A stretch of 64,000 nucleotides of DNA from the IMG/VR virus record IMGVR_UViG_3300031857_000025; one strand, 5' to 3'. Under the pieces are notes generated by a model. The model was not told the DNA's origin, searched no databases, and saw nothing but the letters and a program-made list of their open reading frames with translations. Shown piece after piece: positions 22,815 to 63,549 of the stretch. Made by a program: the position numbers and the translations under genes. Position 1 is the stretch's first letter; each line of letters begins with the position of its first letter. The stretch is from a virus.

Positions 22815-25357
<2,543 letters not shown>

Positions 25358-47722: not shown

Positions 47723-47828
47723 CGGTAAGTCCTTGATTATCAATGAGTTACCGGAGCAAAAGTAACTTTTCTTACTTTTCTCTAGGATTTCGAGGATTTT
47801 GTACTTATCTTTATGAAATAATTAAAAA
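47723..47828 (+). repeat. palindrome plus promoter cassette, copy 1
   Basis: CGGTAAgtccTTGA-tta-TCAAtgagTTACCG, then AGTAAC...CTAGGA-TACTTATCTTTATGAAATAATTAAAAA. Confidence 0.8.
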
Positions 47829-47988: not shown

Positions 47989-48258
47989 ATGATAATTAAA
48001 GGTATGGAAAACAAAAGAACAATGGTACTAACAAAAATTAGTAAGCAATTACCAGGACAAGAAAGAGCGTTCTTGGAATTCATGGGCGGAACTGTAAATT
48101 CATTTGAGAATTGGTCAGAGAAAAGCATGGACGAATTATTGAATTGTTTTATTGAGTTCGAGGAAACTGAAAATGAGGTAGAATTAACAGATGAAATAGC
48201 AGATGAGCTATTGGAAATGTATATTCCAGGTTATGTTAGTGGTGAAGGAGTTTTCTAA
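47989..48258 (+). CDS. hypothetical acidic protein
   Basis: ORF behind a promoter cassette. Confidence 0.6.
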   Translation: MIIKGMENKRTMVLTKISKQLPGQERAFLEFMGGTVNSFENWSEKSMDELLNCFIEFEETENEVELTDEIADELLEMYIPGYVSGEGVF

Positions 48259-48269
48259 ACTTTAAAAAT

Positions 48270-48355
48270 GCCGAGGTGATGGAACTGGTAGACATGCAAG
48301 ACTTAAAATCTTGTGGGTAGTGATACCCGTACGGGTTCGATTCCCGTCCTCGGTA
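48270..48355 (+). tRNA. tRNA-Leu(TAA)
   Basis: acceptor GCCGAGG/CCTCGGT, anticodon arm CAAGA-CTTAAAA-TCTTG, long variable arm, GGTTCGATTCC. Confidence 0.95.
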
Positions 48356-48440
48356 CTAAAAAGAAAAAATCTTAAAAAAGATTTGGTTTTTTGAGATAAC
48401 GTTCTTATATTTATGAAAGATGAATAAGAAATTGTTTAAA

Positions 48441-48584
48441 ATGGCAAAAGCATCTGATAGAGAGCTTAGAATAGAAGCCGGCTTCTTTGATGGCCGATTC
48501 GCTCCTAAGCAATTTACGGATCGCAAGAAAAAGTCTAAACGATTAGCCTGCCGTAAGTGGAAACTGAATAAACAAGAGTATTAA
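48441..48584 (+). CDS. 47 aa basic protein, not in the ORF track
   Basis: MAKASDRELRIEAGFFDGRFAPKQFTDRKKKSKRLACRKW...; own promoter at 48382-48413. Confidence 0.6.
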   Translation: MAKASDRELRIEAGFFDGRFAPKQFTDRKKKSKRLACRKWKLNKQEY

Positions 48585-48612
48585 AAATTTCTTAAAAAAA
48601 GTTACAAAAAGA

Positions 48613-48644
48613 TTTGGTAAATCAAAATATTGTACTTATATTTA
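48613..48644 (+). promoter_or_regulatory. promoter of the ncRNA/tRNA operon
   Basis: TTTG-N20-TATATTTA. Confidence 0.75.
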
Positions 48645-48649
48645 TGAAA

Positions 48650-49553
48650 TAATTGTGAGAGAGAAAGTTCTTTGAAATATTATTATCCATTCAGTAGTTG
48701 ATTATGAGACCTTCGGGTTGATTATGAGACATTTAATCTGATAAATGATAATCGGCCGCTTATGGTCGTTAAATAAACTGGGAAACCAGGATAAAGTGAA
48801 TCACCTTAGTTGAAGTGGTTTGCGGCTTTAGTAATAGAGCTCAAGTAAGCAAGTAGGATATCATTGGTCCTTTGTACCTGAGGGTAACACTGTAGGGGAA
48901 GTGGATTGATGACTGAGCGATGCAGGTCGTTTGGTTGAGTTCGGAAGAATAATAAGAATAACCTATAGGAATTATGTAAGAAGTATGCTTATCCAAGTAT
49001 ATTATTGCGAGTTCCAATATAAGAGGAATCTTAAAGCTGAAAGGCAAGTCAGTGTACGGGTGGTGCCGTTACTGTACCGGAGACTTATCTACCAAGGTAG
49101 GTTTACGTAGATTTCTTGAAGTATGGAGGTGGGGACACTTCAGAGAGTAGTTAAGTATTGACTCGTTCAAAAGATGAGTTAGCTTGTGATAGGCCACTAC
49201 TTTCCGAATCTGCAACTAAAACCTTTGCATTGATTAGCAAACTAATAAATAACAAAGCAAAAGTGCCTATCAGCTACGGATGAAAGATGCCTACACAGTA
49301 ATGGGTTGTCCATTGCCATTGAAGGTCGCAAGCCTAAGATGATATCTTTGAAAGGTCTATAGCTCCGCAAGAGTTAATTAGCCCGGCAGGGTTGAATAGA
49401 ATGAGTAAGAGGTGAGTAGTCCAAACAAGTAGCTCAAAGAGTGGTGTACTTAAATCACCGGCATTGTTAGGATAGTATCCAAAAGATACTGGACAAGAAG
49501 GGAAAACATAATCCGACAAAAGACCTAACACCGAAGCTGTAGTCTCAGGCTTT
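48650..49553 (+). ncRNA. ~900 nt structured RNA, GOLLD-like
   Basis: no + strand ORF of 60 aa or more, richer in GC than its flanks, many GNRA/UUCG-capped helices, lies between phage tRNAs; family assignment from size, context and recall only. Confidence 0.7.
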
Positions 49554-49561
49554 ATATAAAT

Positions 49562-49638
49562 TGTGGGATAGAGCAGTTGGCCAGCTCGTTAGGCTCATAA
49601 CCTAAAGGTCGGTGGTTCGAATCCATCTCCCGCAACCA
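49562..49638 (+). tRNA. tRNA-Met(CAT), initiator-like
   Basis: weak 1:72 pair, A11-U24, TTAGG-CTCATAA-CCTAA, encoded CCA. Confidence 0.9.
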
Positions 49639-49651
49639 TTAAAAATTAGTT

Positions 49652-49921
49652 ATGGAAAACAAAAAGTATTCAGTAGTTTATAAAAATGCTGAAACAACAA
49701 GTACCTGGACCTATGATCTTAGTAAGACTCGTAACGGTCCAGTTTCTGTTGAAATAGAGTATCATGATGGATTGGTTGAACGTAAGGTTAAAACTAAAGA
49801 GCCAAAAGTGAAAAAAGCAAAAGTGGTTAAAGCTAAACCAACTCCAGTTAAGAAGAAAAAGATTGTTAAGAAGAAAAGTGTTAAGAAGAAAATAAACACT
49901 AATCTTGGTCGGTTCGTCTAG
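49652..49921 (+). CDS. Lys-rich basic-tail protein
   Basis: KVKKAKVVKAK...KKKKIVKKKSVKKK; the stop codon lies inside tRNA-Glu. Confidence 0.65.
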   Translation: MENKKYSVVYKNAETTSTWTYDLSKTRNGPVSVEIEYHDGLVERKVKTKEPKVKKAKVVKAKPTPVKKKKIVKKKSVKKKINTNLGRFV

Positions 49922-49978
49922 GGGTCAGGACACCAGATTTTCATTCTGGGAACACGGGTTCGATTCCCGTACCGACTA
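49907..49978 (+). tRNA. tRNA-Glu(TTC)
   Basis: GGTCGGT/ACCGACT, CCAGA-TTTTCAT-TCTGG, GGTTCGATTCC. Confidence 0.93.
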
Positions 49979-49981
49979 CAC

Positions 49982-50126
49982 GTGCCACTTGATTGGTGGC
50001 TAGTATGTGTAATACGAAAGAAATGGATTGATCTCCATATGCACTAACGCGGGGTGAGAAGGCTCCTACGATTGTTGACTGGTCGGCCCAAGAATAGGTA
50101 AGAGTCGGTGGTACCTTATCAGTCAA
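49982..50126 (+). ncRNA. unidentified structured RNA (~145 nt)
   Basis: GCCAC/GTGGC, ATGGA/TCCAT, TTGACTGGT/ATCAGTCAA helices. Confidence 0.45.
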
Positions 50127-50130
50127 AAAT

Positions 50131-50228
50131 GCTCAGGTGGCGGAAGCGAGACTATTGCAATGGTTCGATAGAAGACGCTAAGGAAACGAGCCAGCAATGG
50201 CATGAAGGTGCAAGTCCTTCTCTGAGTA
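50131..50228 (+). ncRNA. tRNA-like RNA lacking an anticodon arm
   Basis: acceptor GCTCAGG/TCTGAGT+A, Leu-type D stem, variable arm GCCA-GCAA-TGGC, T arm GAAGG-TGCAAGT-CCTTC. Confidence 0.65.
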
Positions 50229-50229
50229 C

Positions 50230-50435
50230 AATGAGTAAGAGATACTCACCAGTCTTTGAATCAAGACTTTACCAATGATTCCGCAGAATGTCTACGGCGC
50301 GAGTGGGACATCGTGGGAATAAAGGCGGCAATCACACCTCCTCCTACGTAGTGTGACTTTTTTAACGGGGATGCCCTTCAGGTTTCATCAATAGGAAAAA
50401 ACCGAAATGACTACTCACCGGAATCTCAGGTGGGG
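50230..50435 (+). ncRNA. unidentified structured RNA (~205 nt) sharing motifs with the large RNA
   Basis: TGAGTA/TACTCA, AGTCTT/AAGACT, TCACAC/GTGTGA, CTCACC/GGTGGG hairpins. Confidence 0.5.
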
Positions 50436-50440
50436 AATTT

Positions 50441-50517
50441 GCGCTCTTAGCTCAGTTGGTTAGAGCAACTGACTCATAATCAGTAGGTACCTGGTTCGAT
50501 TCCAGGAGGGCGCACCA
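50441..50517 (+). tRNA. tRNA(CAT), probably Ile2 (lysidine type)
   Basis: GCGCTCT/AGGGCGC, ACTGA-CTCATAA-TCAGT, encoded CCA; body resembles Ile2 more than Met. Confidence 0.9.
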
Positions 50518-50520
50518 AAC

Positions 50521-51044
50521 AGTAGACGTTCTTTGACATAAAACTTATAGGAGAAAATAATATGGAAACAATGTATTTCGTTTTAGGTATGCTCTCGATC
50601 ATTGGAGTTATCGCAATAGCAACAATCGTTTGGGGTATAGTTAAGATTAGCAAATTGTTAAAGGTAATTAAACAACAGGAAGAGTGGATCATAAACAACG
50701 AACGTCAGATACACGATACCCTTTATCGTTTGCGTGAGGATCTAGATCGTAGAATGGATATTATGGATCGGTATGGTTGTGATCGAGTAACTGATCTACA
50801 ACGAGAACTAGATTCTAGATTTAATACAATAGAACGTGAACAAGAAAAAATAGAAGAGGAATTGCATAGACGTATCGGTCATGAAAATGAAGATATGATG
50901 ATTGAAATAAACAGTCAAATCACAGATGCAGTTACACAAAGCACGTCATATACGGATAAACGTATTGATAAACTTATTGATACTTACTTTATGGTAAGTG
51001 AAGCAAAGAAACAAAAATAATTAAACCGTTAAAGAACGTCTACT
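50521..51044. repeat. 17 bp inverted repeat flanking ORF 50562
   Basis: AGTAGACGTTCTTTGAC (50521-50537) versus GTTAAAGAACGTCTACT (51028-51044); one G-U pair. Confidence 0.85.
50562..51020 (+). CDS. membrane-anchored coiled-coil protein
   Basis: N-terminal TM segment, heptad-rich body. Confidence 0.7.
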   Translation: METMYFVLGMLSIIGVIAIATIVWGIVKISKLLKVIKQQEEWIINNERQIHDTLYRLREDLDRRMDIMDRYGCDRVTDLQRELDSRFNTIEREQEKIEEELHRRIGHENEDMMIEINSQITDAVTQSTSYTDKRIDKLIDTYFMVSEAKKQK

Positions 51045-52930: not shown

Positions 52931-53079
52931 TAGAACAAAAAAAAGAGATCCAACAATTAACAATGGCAGTAATTACGGGTATTATACTAGGAGTAGCTAT
53001 TGTAATGATATTAGCAACTGGATGTGTATCTAAACATCCTAAATGTGCTGCATATGATAAAATTGAAACAGTGAAATGA
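52927..53079 (+). CDS. small putative lipoprotein
   Basis: hydrophobic stretch, LATGC lipobox-like, CAAY. Confidence 0.55.
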   Translation: MIEQKKEIQQLTMAVITGIILGVAIVMILATGCVSKHPKCAAYDKIETVK

Positions 53080-54644
53080 GATTACTATTATTCTTATTAC
53101 TAATACCCAACCTAATATTAGCACAATGCGCAGGTAACCAATCCTTTACATTAACACCTGCACCAGTAAACGGAACCTACGAACCAGGCACAGTAGTAAC
53201 CATGTGTTATACTATGAACGGGTGGGATACTGGATTTGGATCCAATTGGATAGAAGGATTTGGAATAGTATTAGGACCAGGATGGGTTTCATATACTCCC
53301 ATATTAGGACCTGATGATTGTGGTGGAGCAGTTGCTGATCAAGGTTGGTTATGGTTAGAGACCGTAACTAATGATCTAGGAACACTCACAGTAGGTCCAG
53401 GTTACTTCTATGAAGGACCACAAGGTACTATTGATGGTAACCCAGGAAATGATTGGGGTGACTTTGGAACAAACTGCTTATGGACATTCTGCATACAGCT
53501 ACAAGTATCTGATGAGTGTGATCCACTATCGCTACTAATTGAGGTAACTCCTTATGCCGATGGCACAATGGGTAGTTGGGGTAATGAATCATGTTTCGAT
53601 CCTGCCTTCCAAGTCTTTACTGGTACTATTGTCGGTGGAGATGTTGATACTTCTCCTATAACAATACCAACAGATACTATATGCGTAGGGTCAACACAAA
53701 CATATGCAGTTGTTAACACTCCAGGATCTGTCTATGATTGGACTTTATCAAACGGCGGGACATTAACTGAGAATGGTTCCAATACTATTATAATTGATTG
53801 GGCAGGTGTACCTGGAGATTATATTATTACAGTACAAGAAACGACTGTGGATGGTTGTGTTGGTGATATTATTGATACTACTATTACAGTTGCTGATACA
53901 TTAATAGTGTTCAGTCAACCTACTACCGGAATATGTCTAGGAGATACTTTACACCTTAATGCTATTCCTAATGATGGTTATTGGTCTGGCGGTAACTTAA
54001 CTGGTAATGTGTATACTGGTAATACTCCAGGATATCAATTCGTTAAATATACTGTTAACATTTATGGGTGTACAGTTACTGATTCCGTTAGAGTATTTGT
54101 TAGAGAGTTATTTACATCTCCAGTAATTAGTGGATTGCAGTATATCGATCTATGTTTATCAGATCGCGTTCAAACTTATTATACTGTTGATGATCCTAGT
54201 ATTGAGTATACATGGTTAATGGGTAATCAGACATTACTAGATACAGATTATGATCTGCAAATGATTTGGCCGGACAGTACCATGGGTTATACTTTAGGAG
54301 TATTTGGAACTGATACAATTGGATGTCGTAGCGAAGTAGGTTATATTAATGTTGCTGTAACAGCATGTCATAGAATATTCGTACCTAATTCATTTACTCC
54401 TAACGGGGACAGTTATAATGATGCTTTCCGAGTAGTTGGATCGGCAGTATATGATTTGGATTTCAAAATATATAATCGATTTGGTAGTGTAGTTCATAAG
54501 ATATCATCTACCAATGAATACTGGAATGGTAATGATGGTTCGGGATATTATTGTCCTACCGGAATATATAATTGGATAGCTACTTATAGCGATGACCAAG
54601 GACTTAGACATACAGAGAAAGGACATATAATTTTAATACGATGA
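53076..54644 (+). CDS. secreted PKD/Ig-like protein with T9SS type B C-terminal sorting domain
   Basis: signal peptide; FVPNSFTPNGDSYND...IYNRFG...WNG...GIY...GHIILIR. Confidence 0.88.
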   Translation: MRLLLFLLLIPNLILAQCAGNQSFTLTPAPVNGTYEPGTVVTMCYTMNGWDTGFGSNWIEGFGIVLGPGWVSYTPILGPDDCGGAVADQGWLWLETVTNDLGTLTVGPGYFYEGPQGTIDGNPGNDWGDFGTNCLWTFCIQLQVSDECDPLSLLIEVTPYADGTMGSWGNESCFDPAFQVFTGTIVGGDVDTSPITIPTDTICVGSTQTYAVVNTPGSVYDWTLSNGGTLTENGSNTIIIDWAGVPGDYIITVQETTVDGCVGDIIDTTITVADTLIVFSQPTTGICLGDTLHLNAIPNDGYWSGGNLTGNVYTGNTPGYQFVKYTVNIYGCTVTDSVRVFVRELFTSPVISGLQYIDLCLSDRVQTYYTVDDPSIEYTWLMGNQTLLDTDYDLQMIWPDSTMGYTLGVFGTDTIGCRSEVGYINVAVTACHRIFVPNSFTPNGDSYNDAFRVVGSAVYDLDFKIYNRFGSVVHKISSTNEYWNGNDGSGYYCPTGIYNWIATYSDDQGLRHTEKGHIILIR

Positions 54645-57113: not shown

Positions 57114-58259
57114 ATGGAAAATAATAACTCAGTGTGCTATGTAGCACGTATTGGTGAAATCATACCAATACCAGGCGCGGATAATATTGAAATAGCTTTA
57201 GCTGGTGGTTGGCAGGCTATCACCAAGAAAGGAGAATACAAAGTAGATGACTTGGTAGCCATTGCTACAACAGATGCTGTTATACCCCAAGGGCTTTCAG
57301 ATGCAATGAACGTAACTAATTACTTACGTAAAGGTCAACGTGTGCGTACTGTTAAGTTGAGAGGGATGTATTCTGAATGTTTAGTGATTCCTAACCAGTT
57401 TTTACCAGTTGGTTACAACCCAGAAGGTAAGGATCTGATGGATTCGTTGAGTATCTTCAAATACGAACCACCAGCTGTACAAGTACAATTGGCATCAGGA
57501 CGTAAGATTAGATATCAGAAGAATCCCAACTTTCATGTGTACTACAAGTTCCCTAACATGAAGAACGTGACTGGAATGTTCACTGATACTGATTTAGTTC
57601 AGATAACTCGTAAGTTACATGGTACCAATGCTCGTTATGGTATTGTTAAGAAAACTAAACTATCTCTTTGGGATAAGATAAAGAAGTTCCTATGGTTAGC
57701 TGATACATGGGTCGACTATGAGTTTGTGTATGGATCGCATAATGTAGAGAAAGGATCTGACTCTCAAGGATTCTATGACACAGATGTTTGGAGAACAGTT
57801 GCTGACAAGTATGATATTAAAAACAAATTGTGGGCGTTTGTTAAAAATCATAAACCATCAGAAATTGGAAATGGAGTAGTTGTTTATGGTGAGGTGTATG
57901 GTCCTGGTATTCAAAAGAATTATGATTACGGATTAAAAGAATTAGAGTTCGCTGGGTTTGATATTATGTGGGATGGTAATTATTTATCTGTTGAAGAAAC
58001 TTGGTACACAATGACGGGAAACAAAGGCTCATTCATTGGTGGAGTTGATTTACCACATGTGCCTATATTATATACTGGTCCATGGTCTCAAGAAATTCAA
58101 GACGTATTTACATTCAATAACTTTATTGAAGGTACCAAAGTACCACATGAAGGTATTGTAATTAAACATGTATCAGGTGACCGTCATAAAGTTGCCAAAG
58201 TAATTAACCCAGATTATCTTATTTACGGCGAAAAACATGATGTTGGGGATAGTCACTAA
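57114..58259 (+). CDS. RNA ligase (DRB0094/Rnl5-like)
   Basis: N-terminal OB-like IPGAD/KLRG; KLHGTN, YGEVYG, FDI, EGIV, K-x-I. Confidence 0.85.
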   Translation: MENNNSVCYVARIGEIIPIPGADNIEIALAGGWQAITKKGEYKVDDLVAIATTDAVIPQGLSDAMNVTNYLRKGQRVRTVKLRGMYSECLVIPNQFLPVGYNPEGKDLMDSLSIFKYEPPAVQVQLASGRKIRYQKNPNFHVYYKFPNMKNVTGMFTDTDLVQITRKLHGTNARYGIVKKTKLSLWDKIKKFLWLADTWVDYEFVYGSHNVEKGSDSQGFYDTDVWRTVADKYDIKNKLWAFVKNHKPSEIGNGVVVYGEVYGPGIQKNYDYGLKELEFAGFDIMWDGNYLSVEETWYTMTGNKGSFIGGVDLPHVPILYTGPWSQEIQDVFTFNNFIEGTKVPHEGIVIKHVSGDRHKVAKVINPDYLIYGEKHDVGDSH

Positions 58260-58270
58260 TAAAATTGGAA

Positions 58271-58326
58271 GAAAGTAACATTTCTAACATTTTTCTAGGA
58301 TCTTTGAAATATTGTACTTACCTTTA
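58271..58326 (+). promoter_or_regulatory. promoter cassette, copy 4
   Basis: GAAAGTAACATTTCTAACATTTTTCTAG-N20-TACCTTTA. Confidence 0.75.
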
Positions 58327-62236: not shown

Positions 62237-62458
62237 ATGAGTAACATTAAATTTCACACCAATAGACAAGTAGCCTTACAGATGGCTATCGAATACAGAA
62301 AGGGCCAAGTAGACAATACACCAGAGACGATAATCCTTCAAGCGGATGAGTTCTATGAATGGCTACAGAATGCTCCTATGAAGGACGAAGACCAGAAGTA
62401 TTGGTTAGACGGATCTACAATTTCAAAACCTAATAAAAACAAAACAGATAACAAATGA
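62237..62458 (+). CDS. hypothetical protein
   Basis: ORF in operon. Confidence 0.5.
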   Translation: MSNIKFHTNRQVALQMAIEYRKGQVDNTPETIILQADEFYEWLQNAPMKDEDQKYWLDGSTISKPNKNKTDNK

Positions 62459-63549
62459 AGTTAGCGACATTATATAAAAGATCAACCACCGGTAAAGTAG
62501 TGGAATGGACTATTGAAGTACAAGGTAATTCATATCGTAGTACATCGGGTTATATAGATGGTGTTAAAACAACTACGGAATGGACTCAATGCGAAGGAAA
62601 GAATATCGGCCGTGCCAATGCTACTACAGCTGATGAACAAGCTTTGAGTGAAGCTGTTAGTATCTGGCAAAAGCGAATGGAGTTAGGATCATTTGAAAAT
62701 ATCAATGACATTGATAAGCCAGTTTATTTCAAACCAATGCTGGCTAAGGATTGGAATGAAGAAAAGCATAGAGTACAGTATCCAGTATTTAGCCAACCTA
62801 AACTGGATGGTATACGATGTATTGTGAAATCGGATGGAATGTGGACACGTAATGGTAAACCAATATTATCAGCTCCGCATATATTTGATTCCATGAAGCC
62901 ATTGTTTGAATCTAATCCGGATTTGATCTTTGACGGTGAATTGTATGCTGATAAGTTTGCAAATGATTTCAATGCCATTGTGTCATTAGTTAAAAAGACT
63001 AAACCAACTGCATCAGACTTAAAGGCTAGTGCTGAGTCAATTCAATATCACATTTATGATTTACCTAGTTGCGGTAGTGTGTTTAGTAAACGGTCTGAAG
63101 AATTATATAAATTAGATTTACCTAATTGTTGCAAACGAGTAGATACTCATCATGTTGAAGATGAAGATATGTTAATGGATCTATATAGTGAGTATGTTAC
63201 TGATGGTTATGAAGGACAGATGATACGTTTAGATAAAGAATATGAATACAAACGATCCAAGTCATTGCTTAAACATAAATCATTCATTGACGAAGAGTAT
63301 ACTATTTTGGATGTAGTTGAAGGCGAAGGTAACAAGACCGGTATGGTTGGATCCTTTGTATTTCAAAACTCAGATGGTAAACAGTTCAACGCTGCTCCCA
63401 AATACAATTGGGATGAATGCAAGTCACTTTGGAAGAACCGTGATTCATTGATTGGTAAAATGGCAACGGTTAAGTATTTCAATTTAACACCAGATAATGT
63501 TCCAAGATTTCCATATGTAATTAATATTGATAGAAATAGTTATGAATAA
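62455..63549 (+). CDS. ATP-dependent DNA ligase
   Basis: PMLA, QPKLDGIRC, DGELY, YEGQM, RSKSLLK, PRFP. Confidence 0.92.
   Translation: MKLATLYKRSTTGKVVEWTIEVQGNSYRSTSGYIDGVKTTTEWTQCEGKNIGRANATTADEQALSEAVSIWQKRMELGSFENINDIDKPVYFKPMLAKDWNEEKHRVQYPVFSQPKLDGIRCIVKSDGMWTRNGKPILSAPHIFDSMKPLFESNPDLIFDGELYADKFANDFNAIVSLVKKTKPTASDLKASAESIQYHIYDLPSCGSVFSKRSEELYKLDLPNCCKRVDTHHVEDEDMLMDLYSEYVTDGYEGQMIRLDKEYEYKRSKSLLKHKSFIDEEYTILDVVEGEGNKTGMVGSFVFQNSDGKQFNAAPKYNWDECKSLWKNRDSLIGKMATVKYFNLTPDNVPRFPYVINIDRNSYE

Follow-up and report, generated by a model that had tools for sequence, protein, structure and literature searches.

What does a leader conserved in one branch of a phage RNA family whose function is unknown do at the 5' end of the RNA, and does it take part in the RNA's assembly or in its synthesis? 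The question arises at positions 48650-49553 of a 64,000-nt stretch of viral DNA (IMG/VR record IMGVR_UViG_3300031857_000025; hereafter the window). An earlier note on this DNA had described the region as an ornate, GOLLD-like RNA of about 900 nt. In it, each of two copies of TGAGAC near the 5' end could pair with GTCTCA in the 3' terminal loop, which was taken to suggest intermolecular contacts or a switch. The helices and repeats that it listed are all present in the sequence. Our best overall explanation, to which we assign a probability of roughly 70%, is that the region codes for an env-38-type GOLLD RNA preceded by a leader made up of a boxA and a hairpin, and that this leader would support Nus-factor antitermination of a transcription unit comprising GOLLD and tRNAs. 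The source of the window is a large phage; its GC content is 34%, and the large open reading frames (ORFs), among them those for a DNA polymerase, a ribonucleotide reductase, a DnaB-type helicase, GroEL and an RNA ligase, all lie on the plus strand.

The identity of the RNA was examined by scanning the whole window against Rfam, as the earlier note had proposed. GOLLD (RF02032) was the single large match, aligning over the full length of the model (positions 1-416 of 416) to 49143-49551 with 279.7 bits (gathering score 150, E = 9e-79), and ROOL had no match in the window. The helices noted earlier at 49143/49196, in AGTATC-CAAAA-GATACT, at 49465/49524 and in the terminal hairpin coincide with base-paired positions of the model. 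The 3' domain defined by this match (P14-P27; 49143..49553, plus strand) contains a variable linker at about 49205-49262, a loop CGGCA at about 49383-49387 and, according to the RF02032 alignment, the 9-nt terminal loop L27, GUAGUCUCA, which caps P27 at 49539-49547 and within which GTCTCA (49542-49547) falls. L27 reads RUAnUCUCA in 59 of the 59 relatives described below (GOLLD consensus GUAnUCUCA). The CGGCA loop, CGGCAG with its next letter, was assigned to L21a by position only, and aligned relatives alternate CGGCAG, CGCGAG and CGCAAG there. L21a of GOLLD is a symmetric kissing loop with a palindromic GC/CG dinucleotide that forms cage bridge B8, and a GC/CG switch has been described (PMC12286853); the alternation of CGGCAG and CGCGAG at the aligned loop, mapped by position only, fits that switch. 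Folding of the whole 887-nt RNA gave a z-score of -3.7 relative to 20 shuffles.

As the RF02032 model spans the conserved 3' half only, the 5' half was tested separately. A BLAST search of phage genomes found positions 48754-49077 to be approximately 70% identical to two huge uncultured phages, LR745206 and LR756502 (635 and 642 kb), in both of which a GOLLD 3' domain lies directly downstream of the matched region. Two conserved words taken from this alignment retrieved 16 IMG/VR loci, 73 metagenome loci (mostly from lakes, some marine) and one contig of a metagenome-assembled genome (MAG), and from these loci 59 distinct full-length RNAs were extracted (the relatives, numbered here with the prefix L). 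The nearest relatives of the window RNA are L017 (86% identity) and L087 (79%). The 5' domain (48753..49142, plus strand), which opens with the published P1 hairpin CGGC...GUCG, was aligned first to 9 and later to 42 relatives, and RNAalifold on the 43 sequences predicted 88 pairs, 65 of which show compensatory changes on both sides. The covarying pairs include the hairpin CUGG-GAAA-CCAG (48778-48789), already recognized in the earlier note, and a hairpin at 48826-48843 (alignment columns 206-217 and 262-309). The window RNA is an env-38-type GOLLD in both halves, each of which is conserved and covarying. Given the Rfam score, the homology of the 5' domain and the setting in a phage tRNA island, membership in the GOLLD family, which had been proposed with the alternative of a relative, is virtually certain. 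By analogy with the solved relatives, about 12-14 copies would self-assemble into a hollow RNA-only cage. As a mere instance of GOLLD the locus is ordinary, a further member of a known family.

The only match in a bacterial assembly was the 16-kb contig of a Melioribacteraceae MAG, which is probably phage. GOLLD was absent from 150 other sampled genomes of the host phylum, which suggests that GOLLD of this type resides in phages and not in host chromosomes. The phylum itself was deduced from an ORF at 53076-54644 (522 amino acids) whose C-terminus scores 50 bits (cut-off 35) against TIGR04131, a type B sorting domain of type IX secretion (T9SS), and which has no PHROG match. To our knowledge, the type IX secretion system is restricted to Bacteroidota, so the phage very probably infects a member of this phylum, and the ORF product is predicted to be a phage-encoded cargo of this Bacteroidota-specific secretion system. 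Elsewhere in the window are genes for a GroEL-type chaperonin (23732-25357), an ATP-dependent DNA ligase (62455-63549) and an RNA ligase (57114-58259), the latter a few kb away from the island of tRNAs and GOLLD.

The RNA is embedded in a tRNA island. A tRNA-Leu (UAA; 48270..48356) lies about 310 nt upstream of GOLLD and a tRNA-Met (CAU; 49562..49638), identified by ARAGORN and Rfam, begins 10 nt past its 3' end, both on the plus strand; a tRNA-Glu at 49907 and a last tRNA-Met at 50441-50517 follow. The order tRNA-Leu, GOLLD, tRNA-Met is common to the window, L016, L017, L027 and L047, and in 18 of the 59 relatives a tRNA begins 6-19 nt past GOLLD. No terminator-like site was found in the RNA island (48000-50600). 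Judging from the sequence, the tRNA-Met at 49562 is likely an RNase P processing site that defines the GOLLD 3' end. Between tRNA-Leu and GOLLD lies an ORF for a strongly basic peptide of 54 amino acids (48420-48584), which has a separate copy of the promoter cassette described below; L017 has a comparable gap of 308 nt at this place. Genes for tmRNA also occur within about 1 kb of GOLLD: a standard one in an IMG/VR contig (L008, 1717-2086), and permuted ones in Brevundimonas and Caulobacter phages (L110, 1081-1498; L112, 1168-1486).

Upstream of the RNA, a scan for sigma-70-type promoters returned nothing above background. A promoter-like cassette of another kind occupies 48613..48649 on the plus strand, with a -33 element TTTG (48613-48616), a 20-nt spacer and a -7 box TATATTTA (48637-48644) inside TATATTTATGAAA, and predicts a start near 48650. 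It resembles the TTTG/TAnnTTTG promoter type of Bacteroidota. Two matches to the pattern TTGG-N(17-21)-TATATTTAT were counted over the window (0.15 expected), and the -7 box TAnnTTTATGAAA (also written TAnnTTTATGAAATAAT) has six plus-strand copies, at 47806, 47966, 48406, 48637, 54855 and 60969, in a recurring layout of -33 TTTG, 20 nt, -7 TATATTTA and then TGAAATAAT. Five of the six copies run straight into ORFs or ATG codons, with no Shine-Dalgarno-like sequence between. The copy in front of GOLLD is the only one followed by a boxA-like element; none of the five protein-gene copies has one. GATCTTTGAAA at 58299 falls within the -33 element of a different cassette and was taken as a chance occurrence.

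The boxA-like element, AAGUUCUUUGAAA (48665..48677, plus strand), sits 17-20 nt past the start of the cassette transcript, itself a prediction from sequence. Of the 59 GOLLD leaders, 57 carry a motif of the form G[U/C]UCUUU[G/A]A, 49-115 nt 5' of the published P1; 56 occurrences were counted in 7 kb of leader sequence, against none in 48.7 kb of GOLLD bodies. The boxA consensus is UGCUCUUUAACA in Escherichia coli and AUGAUCUUUGAAA in Bacillus subtilis, the latter shown to bind NusB (PMC13753749). AAGUUCUUUGAAA agrees with the B. subtilis consensus at 11 of 13 positions, and the UUUAACA variants of relatives agree with that of E. coli at 10 of 12; GOLLD leaders contain both flavours of boxA. 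The same words stand in rRNA operons. In the Melioribacteraceae MAG, AAGUUCUUUGAAG stands in the 16S leader, 84 nt ahead of 16S; in the sampled genomes of the MAG's phylum, 6 of 11 rRNA operons carry GTTCTTTGAAA or GTTCTTTAAAG in the 16S leader (84-190 nt upstream), and GTTCTTTGACA is found in the 16S-23S spacer of 9 of 10. The GOLLD boxA is thus letter for letter the boxA of rrn operons in the host phylum (as deduced from the T9SS domain), including the GAAA, GACA and AACA variants. A second boxA-like element, GUUCUUUGACA (50528..50538, plus strand), lies 10 nt past the last tRNA-Met (50441-50517) and ahead of an ORF at 50562-51020; it equals the spacer variant GTTCTTTGACA of 9 of the 10 sampled Bacteroidota rrn operons. 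On these sequence grounds, AAGUUCUUUGAAA is probably a working boxA. Our literature search, which covered work other than the 2009 discovery paper, found nothing that links GOLLD to boxA or to antitermination.

We considered boxA as a general feature of GOLLD and rejected this, as it is missing from the GOLLD loci of Acinetobacter phage YMC13/03/R2096 and Caulobacter phage Ccr34; in the same check, the loci of CcrBL9 and Brevundimonas phage Bajun fell below the Rfam threshold. The GOLLD of YMC13/03/R2096, a cultured Acinetobacter baumannii phage, is unannotated (L108, 1041-1770; KM672662.1, 16319-17048; 217.6 bits) and occupies the gap between tRNA-Asn and tRNA-Asp; its 5' domain, at about 360 nt, is short. 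The surroundings of the motif also vary. Many relatives (L001 at about 2403-2430, L010, L015, L037 and L087) have a small stable hairpin, often with a GAAA, AACG or GCAA cap, that precedes boxA by a few nucleotides in the boxB-boxA order of rRNA leaders, and no such hairpin is obvious in the window. In L011 and L082, about 60 nt of extra structured sequence separates boxA from the leader hairpin.

A conserved word ahead of a folded RNA might instead be a part of that RNA. The segment GUUCUUUGAAA could pair through UCUUU(G) with a purine-rich loop (49126-49134) in the last hairpin of the 5' domain, forming a pseudoknot that closes the domain. RNAalifold does pair columns 10-13 with 693-696, and U-G/U-A and G-U/A-U combinations are kept in all sequences. 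These changes are one-sided, however, and a U can pair with either purine; near-invariant among relatives, the motif itself gives no covariation signal. L002 lacks the motif yet retains the loop, env-38 folds and assembles without it, and a structural role leaves the letter-for-letter identity with the host-phylum rrn boxA, variants included, without a place. We therefore consider the pseudoknot unlikely and continue with boxA as a Nus-factor site.

The second part of the leader is a 75-nt hairpin (48679..48753, plus strand) directly downstream of boxA. It has three tiers: a basal stem formed by AUUAUC (48682-48687) and GAUAAU (48747-48752), a middle stem formed by UCAG (48691-48694) and CUGA (48738-48741), and a distal stem whose strands are the two 14-mers (48697-48710 and 48717-48730), capped by UUCG (48712-48715). 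The repeat around a C-UUCG-G loop that had been remarked on earlier is real: 48697-48713 and 48717-48733 are identical at 16 of 17 positions with a spacing of 20, and the 14-mer GTTGATTATGAGAC is exact. Minimum-free-energy (MFE) folding of 11 sister-clade sequences gave the same basal, middle and UUCG-capped distal stems, and the middle stem covaries (UCAG/CUGA, UCGG/CCGA, CC/GG, CCAA/UUGG). For the leader of the window clade, ViennaRNA favours another fold (-16.7 versus -13.5 kcal/mol), which invades the published P1; this alternative was set aside because the 11 sister-clade sequences share a common architecture.

In the sister clade L010/L088, the copies of the 14-mer are changed at seven positions. 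If position i of the 5' copy is paired with position 15-i of the 3' copy, comparison with L010 yields two compensatory changes (U-A to A-U and G-C to U-A), two one-sided changes, both from wobble to Watson-Crick, and one break; the register shifted by two, which ViennaRNA chooses for the window alone, was rejected, with three breaks and no compensatory change in L010. In the symmetric register 96% of cells are paired, as compared with 22-70% in slid controls. Only three distinct sequences, from two lineages, underlie this covariation, and shuffling matched it in 55 of 500 trials, so that a clear trend goes with weak statistics. The two 14-mers likely pair with each other. The distal stem would then hold two tandem sheared G.A pairs (5'-GA-3'/3'-AG-5'), each flanked by a U.U mismatch, and the quasi-palindromic sequence of the 14-mer accounts for its appearance as a direct repeat. 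In other clades, too, the leader hairpin contains two-fold symmetric internal loops (CAUAG/CAUAG and GGAA/GGAA in L005, L013, L024 and L066, and in L037 and L040), which likewise look like short direct repeats flanking a loop.

The distal part of the hairpin is the longest stretch that is identical in the window, L017 and L087, RNAs that differ by 14-21% elsewhere, and this invariance suggests a sequence-specific partner. It bears on three other accounts of the repeat. The simplest, a recent neutral tandem duplication of 20 nt with no role, matches the period and the 16 of 17 identical positions, but both copies have stayed identical in three diverged lineages and the homologous hairpin of L010/L088 keeps its layout with compensatory changes; we give this account next to no credence.

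The pairing of each UGAGAC with GUCUCA of L27, within or between molecules, is the account put forward in the earlier note, and it would provide extra cage contacts or a two-state switch. A 6-nt Watson-Crick complement is indeed present twice, L27 could be the partner that the invariant hairpin hints at, and the leader is missing from the solved construct, so that the structure cannot exclude an added contact. The phylogenetic pattern goes the other way. L27 is invariant in all 59 relatives, yet the UGAGAC complement is restricted to one subclade of three (window, L017 and L087). In L010/L088 the copies read UGAAAC and UGAAUA, with central mismatches to an unchanged L27, while the pairing of copy with copy is kept; in either register of the hairpin, moreover, both copies are occupied in the stem. 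Nor is the 6-nt complementarity beyond chance by itself: the two copies cannot be counted as independent, and a complement of at least 6 nt to the RNA's own L27 turns up within 120 nt upstream in 18 of the 59 relatives, mainly in AT-rich promoter sequence. The env-38 cage structure shows L27 buried as an intramolecular hub, paired with P23 and J24/26 and in contact with P18, P22 and J17/18 (PMC12286853), and by analogy L27 of the window would be the intramolecular hub of its 3' domain. The env-38 construct also begins downstream of the position of both UGAGAC elements and forms cages without a leader, so the leader elements are not required for cage formation in vitro. Taken together, these observations make the contact or switch proposed for L27 highly improbable.

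A third account retains the sequence-specific partner and places it on the protein side, in that boxA and the hairpin, as an analogue of boxB, could form a nut-like leader bound by a phage antiterminator or another sequence-specific protein, with the symmetric G.A/U.U loops as the recognition surface. The order of boxA followed by a hairpin is that of lambda nut, and both the invariant distal stem and the recurrence of symmetric internal loops in other clades would be expected of such a site. The hairpin nonetheless varies widely in sequence and length among clades, its UUCG tetraloop is not a GNRA-like boxB loop, and the small hairpins 5' of boxA in many relatives follow the order of rrn leaders. 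This reading seems doubtful to us, and we retain the host Nus factors as the proposed partners of boxA.

In the model that we favour, host RNA polymerase would initiate at the phage promoter near 48650, and boxA at 48665-48677 would recruit host NusB-S10 and other Nus factors as at rRNA operons, where boxA-loaded Nus factors protect untranslated transcription from Rho. The polymerase would then be resistant to Rho and to pausing over about 2 kb of untranslated, structured RNA (GOLLD and tRNAs), and antitermination may also aid folding during synthesis. An RNase P cut at tRNA-Met would release the GOLLD 3' end, and the released RNA would assemble into a cage like those of the solved relatives. 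One extension is that the leader is kept on the mature RNA, so that each cage would display 12-14 NusB-S10 sites as a decoy or docking platform for ribosomal protein S10 and the antitermination factors of host rRNA operons. Such a cage could starve host rRNA synthesis or tether itself to RNA polymerase or ribosomes, and NusB-S10 display would give GOLLD its first concrete molecular partner. This decoy reading would fit the pull-down of ribosomes with GOLLD that is cited in PMC12286853, but we consider it very unlikely.

The model also concerns the extent of the gene. The transcript is predicted to extend 5' of the published model, and the natural GOLLD gene in this clade appears to start about 100 nt further upstream and to open with a signal taken over from rRNA operons. 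The solved GOLLD structures reportedly used constructs trimmed at the boundaries of the 2009 alignment. The conserved leader of boxA and hairpin is omitted by published models and structures, as judged from the env-38 construct sequence in the supplement of Kretsch et al. and from the supplement's alignment, which covers the 3' domain only. If the leader acts as we propose, it would explain how about 2 kb of untranslated, tightly folded phage RNA is made without premature termination, the full-length RNA and not the trimmed construct would be the right object for structures and partner searches, and GOLLD biogenesis would become cheaply testable through NusB-S10 binding and Rho dependence.

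Among known systems, ROOL is, like GOLLD, a large ornate RNA of phages and prophages near tRNAs that forms RNA-only cages (8-mers; PMC12286853), but is unrelated to the window RNA in sequence and fold. The Streptococcus agalactiae GOLLD (700 nt, dodecamer, PDB 9L0R; PMC12990946) belongs to the same family and shares the conserved 3' domain P14-P27; unlike the window RNA, it comes from a Gram-positive prophage, forms 12-mers and has a reduced 5' domain without P9, P11a-c and P21b. The closest solved relative is env-38 (833 nt, 14-mer D7 nanocage, PDB 9MEE; Kretsch et al. 2025, PMC12286853). It has the same type of 5' domain from P1 onward, with GGCCGCU(U)AUGGUCGU-AAAUAAA, GAAA hairpins and GAGCU-AGUA-GCAAG, the same 3' domain with L27 GUAnUCUCA and a CGGCA-type loop, matched to L21a by position, and an adjoining tRNA-Met. 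Its construct, which begins AUGGCCGCUAUGGUCGUCAAAUAAA, the homologue of 48752 onward in the window (PMC12286853, supplement), contains neither the boxA motif nor the leader hairpin. Where env-38-like relatives insert a GAAA-capped stem (alignment columns 566-582), the window has a much shorter hairpin, so its stoichiometry cannot be read from the solved env-38 structure.

For the leader, the comparison is with rrn boxA and lambda nut. The window hairpin, at 75 nt and with a UUCG cap, differs from a lambda-type nut site, in which boxB has a GNRA-like pentaloop and an N-type protein. The rrn leaders differ in that the RNA behind the window boxA is a phage cage RNA and not rRNA, with binding and antitermination putative. 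The likeness to rrn lies in the element itself, AAGUUCUUUGAAA against AUGAUCUUUGAAA and UGCUCUUUAACA, the NusB-NusE/S10 site in rrn, and in its setting: the window boxA follows closely on a predicted promoter and would lead a long transcript that is untranslated, structured and includes tRNAs, and a second copy lies downstream.
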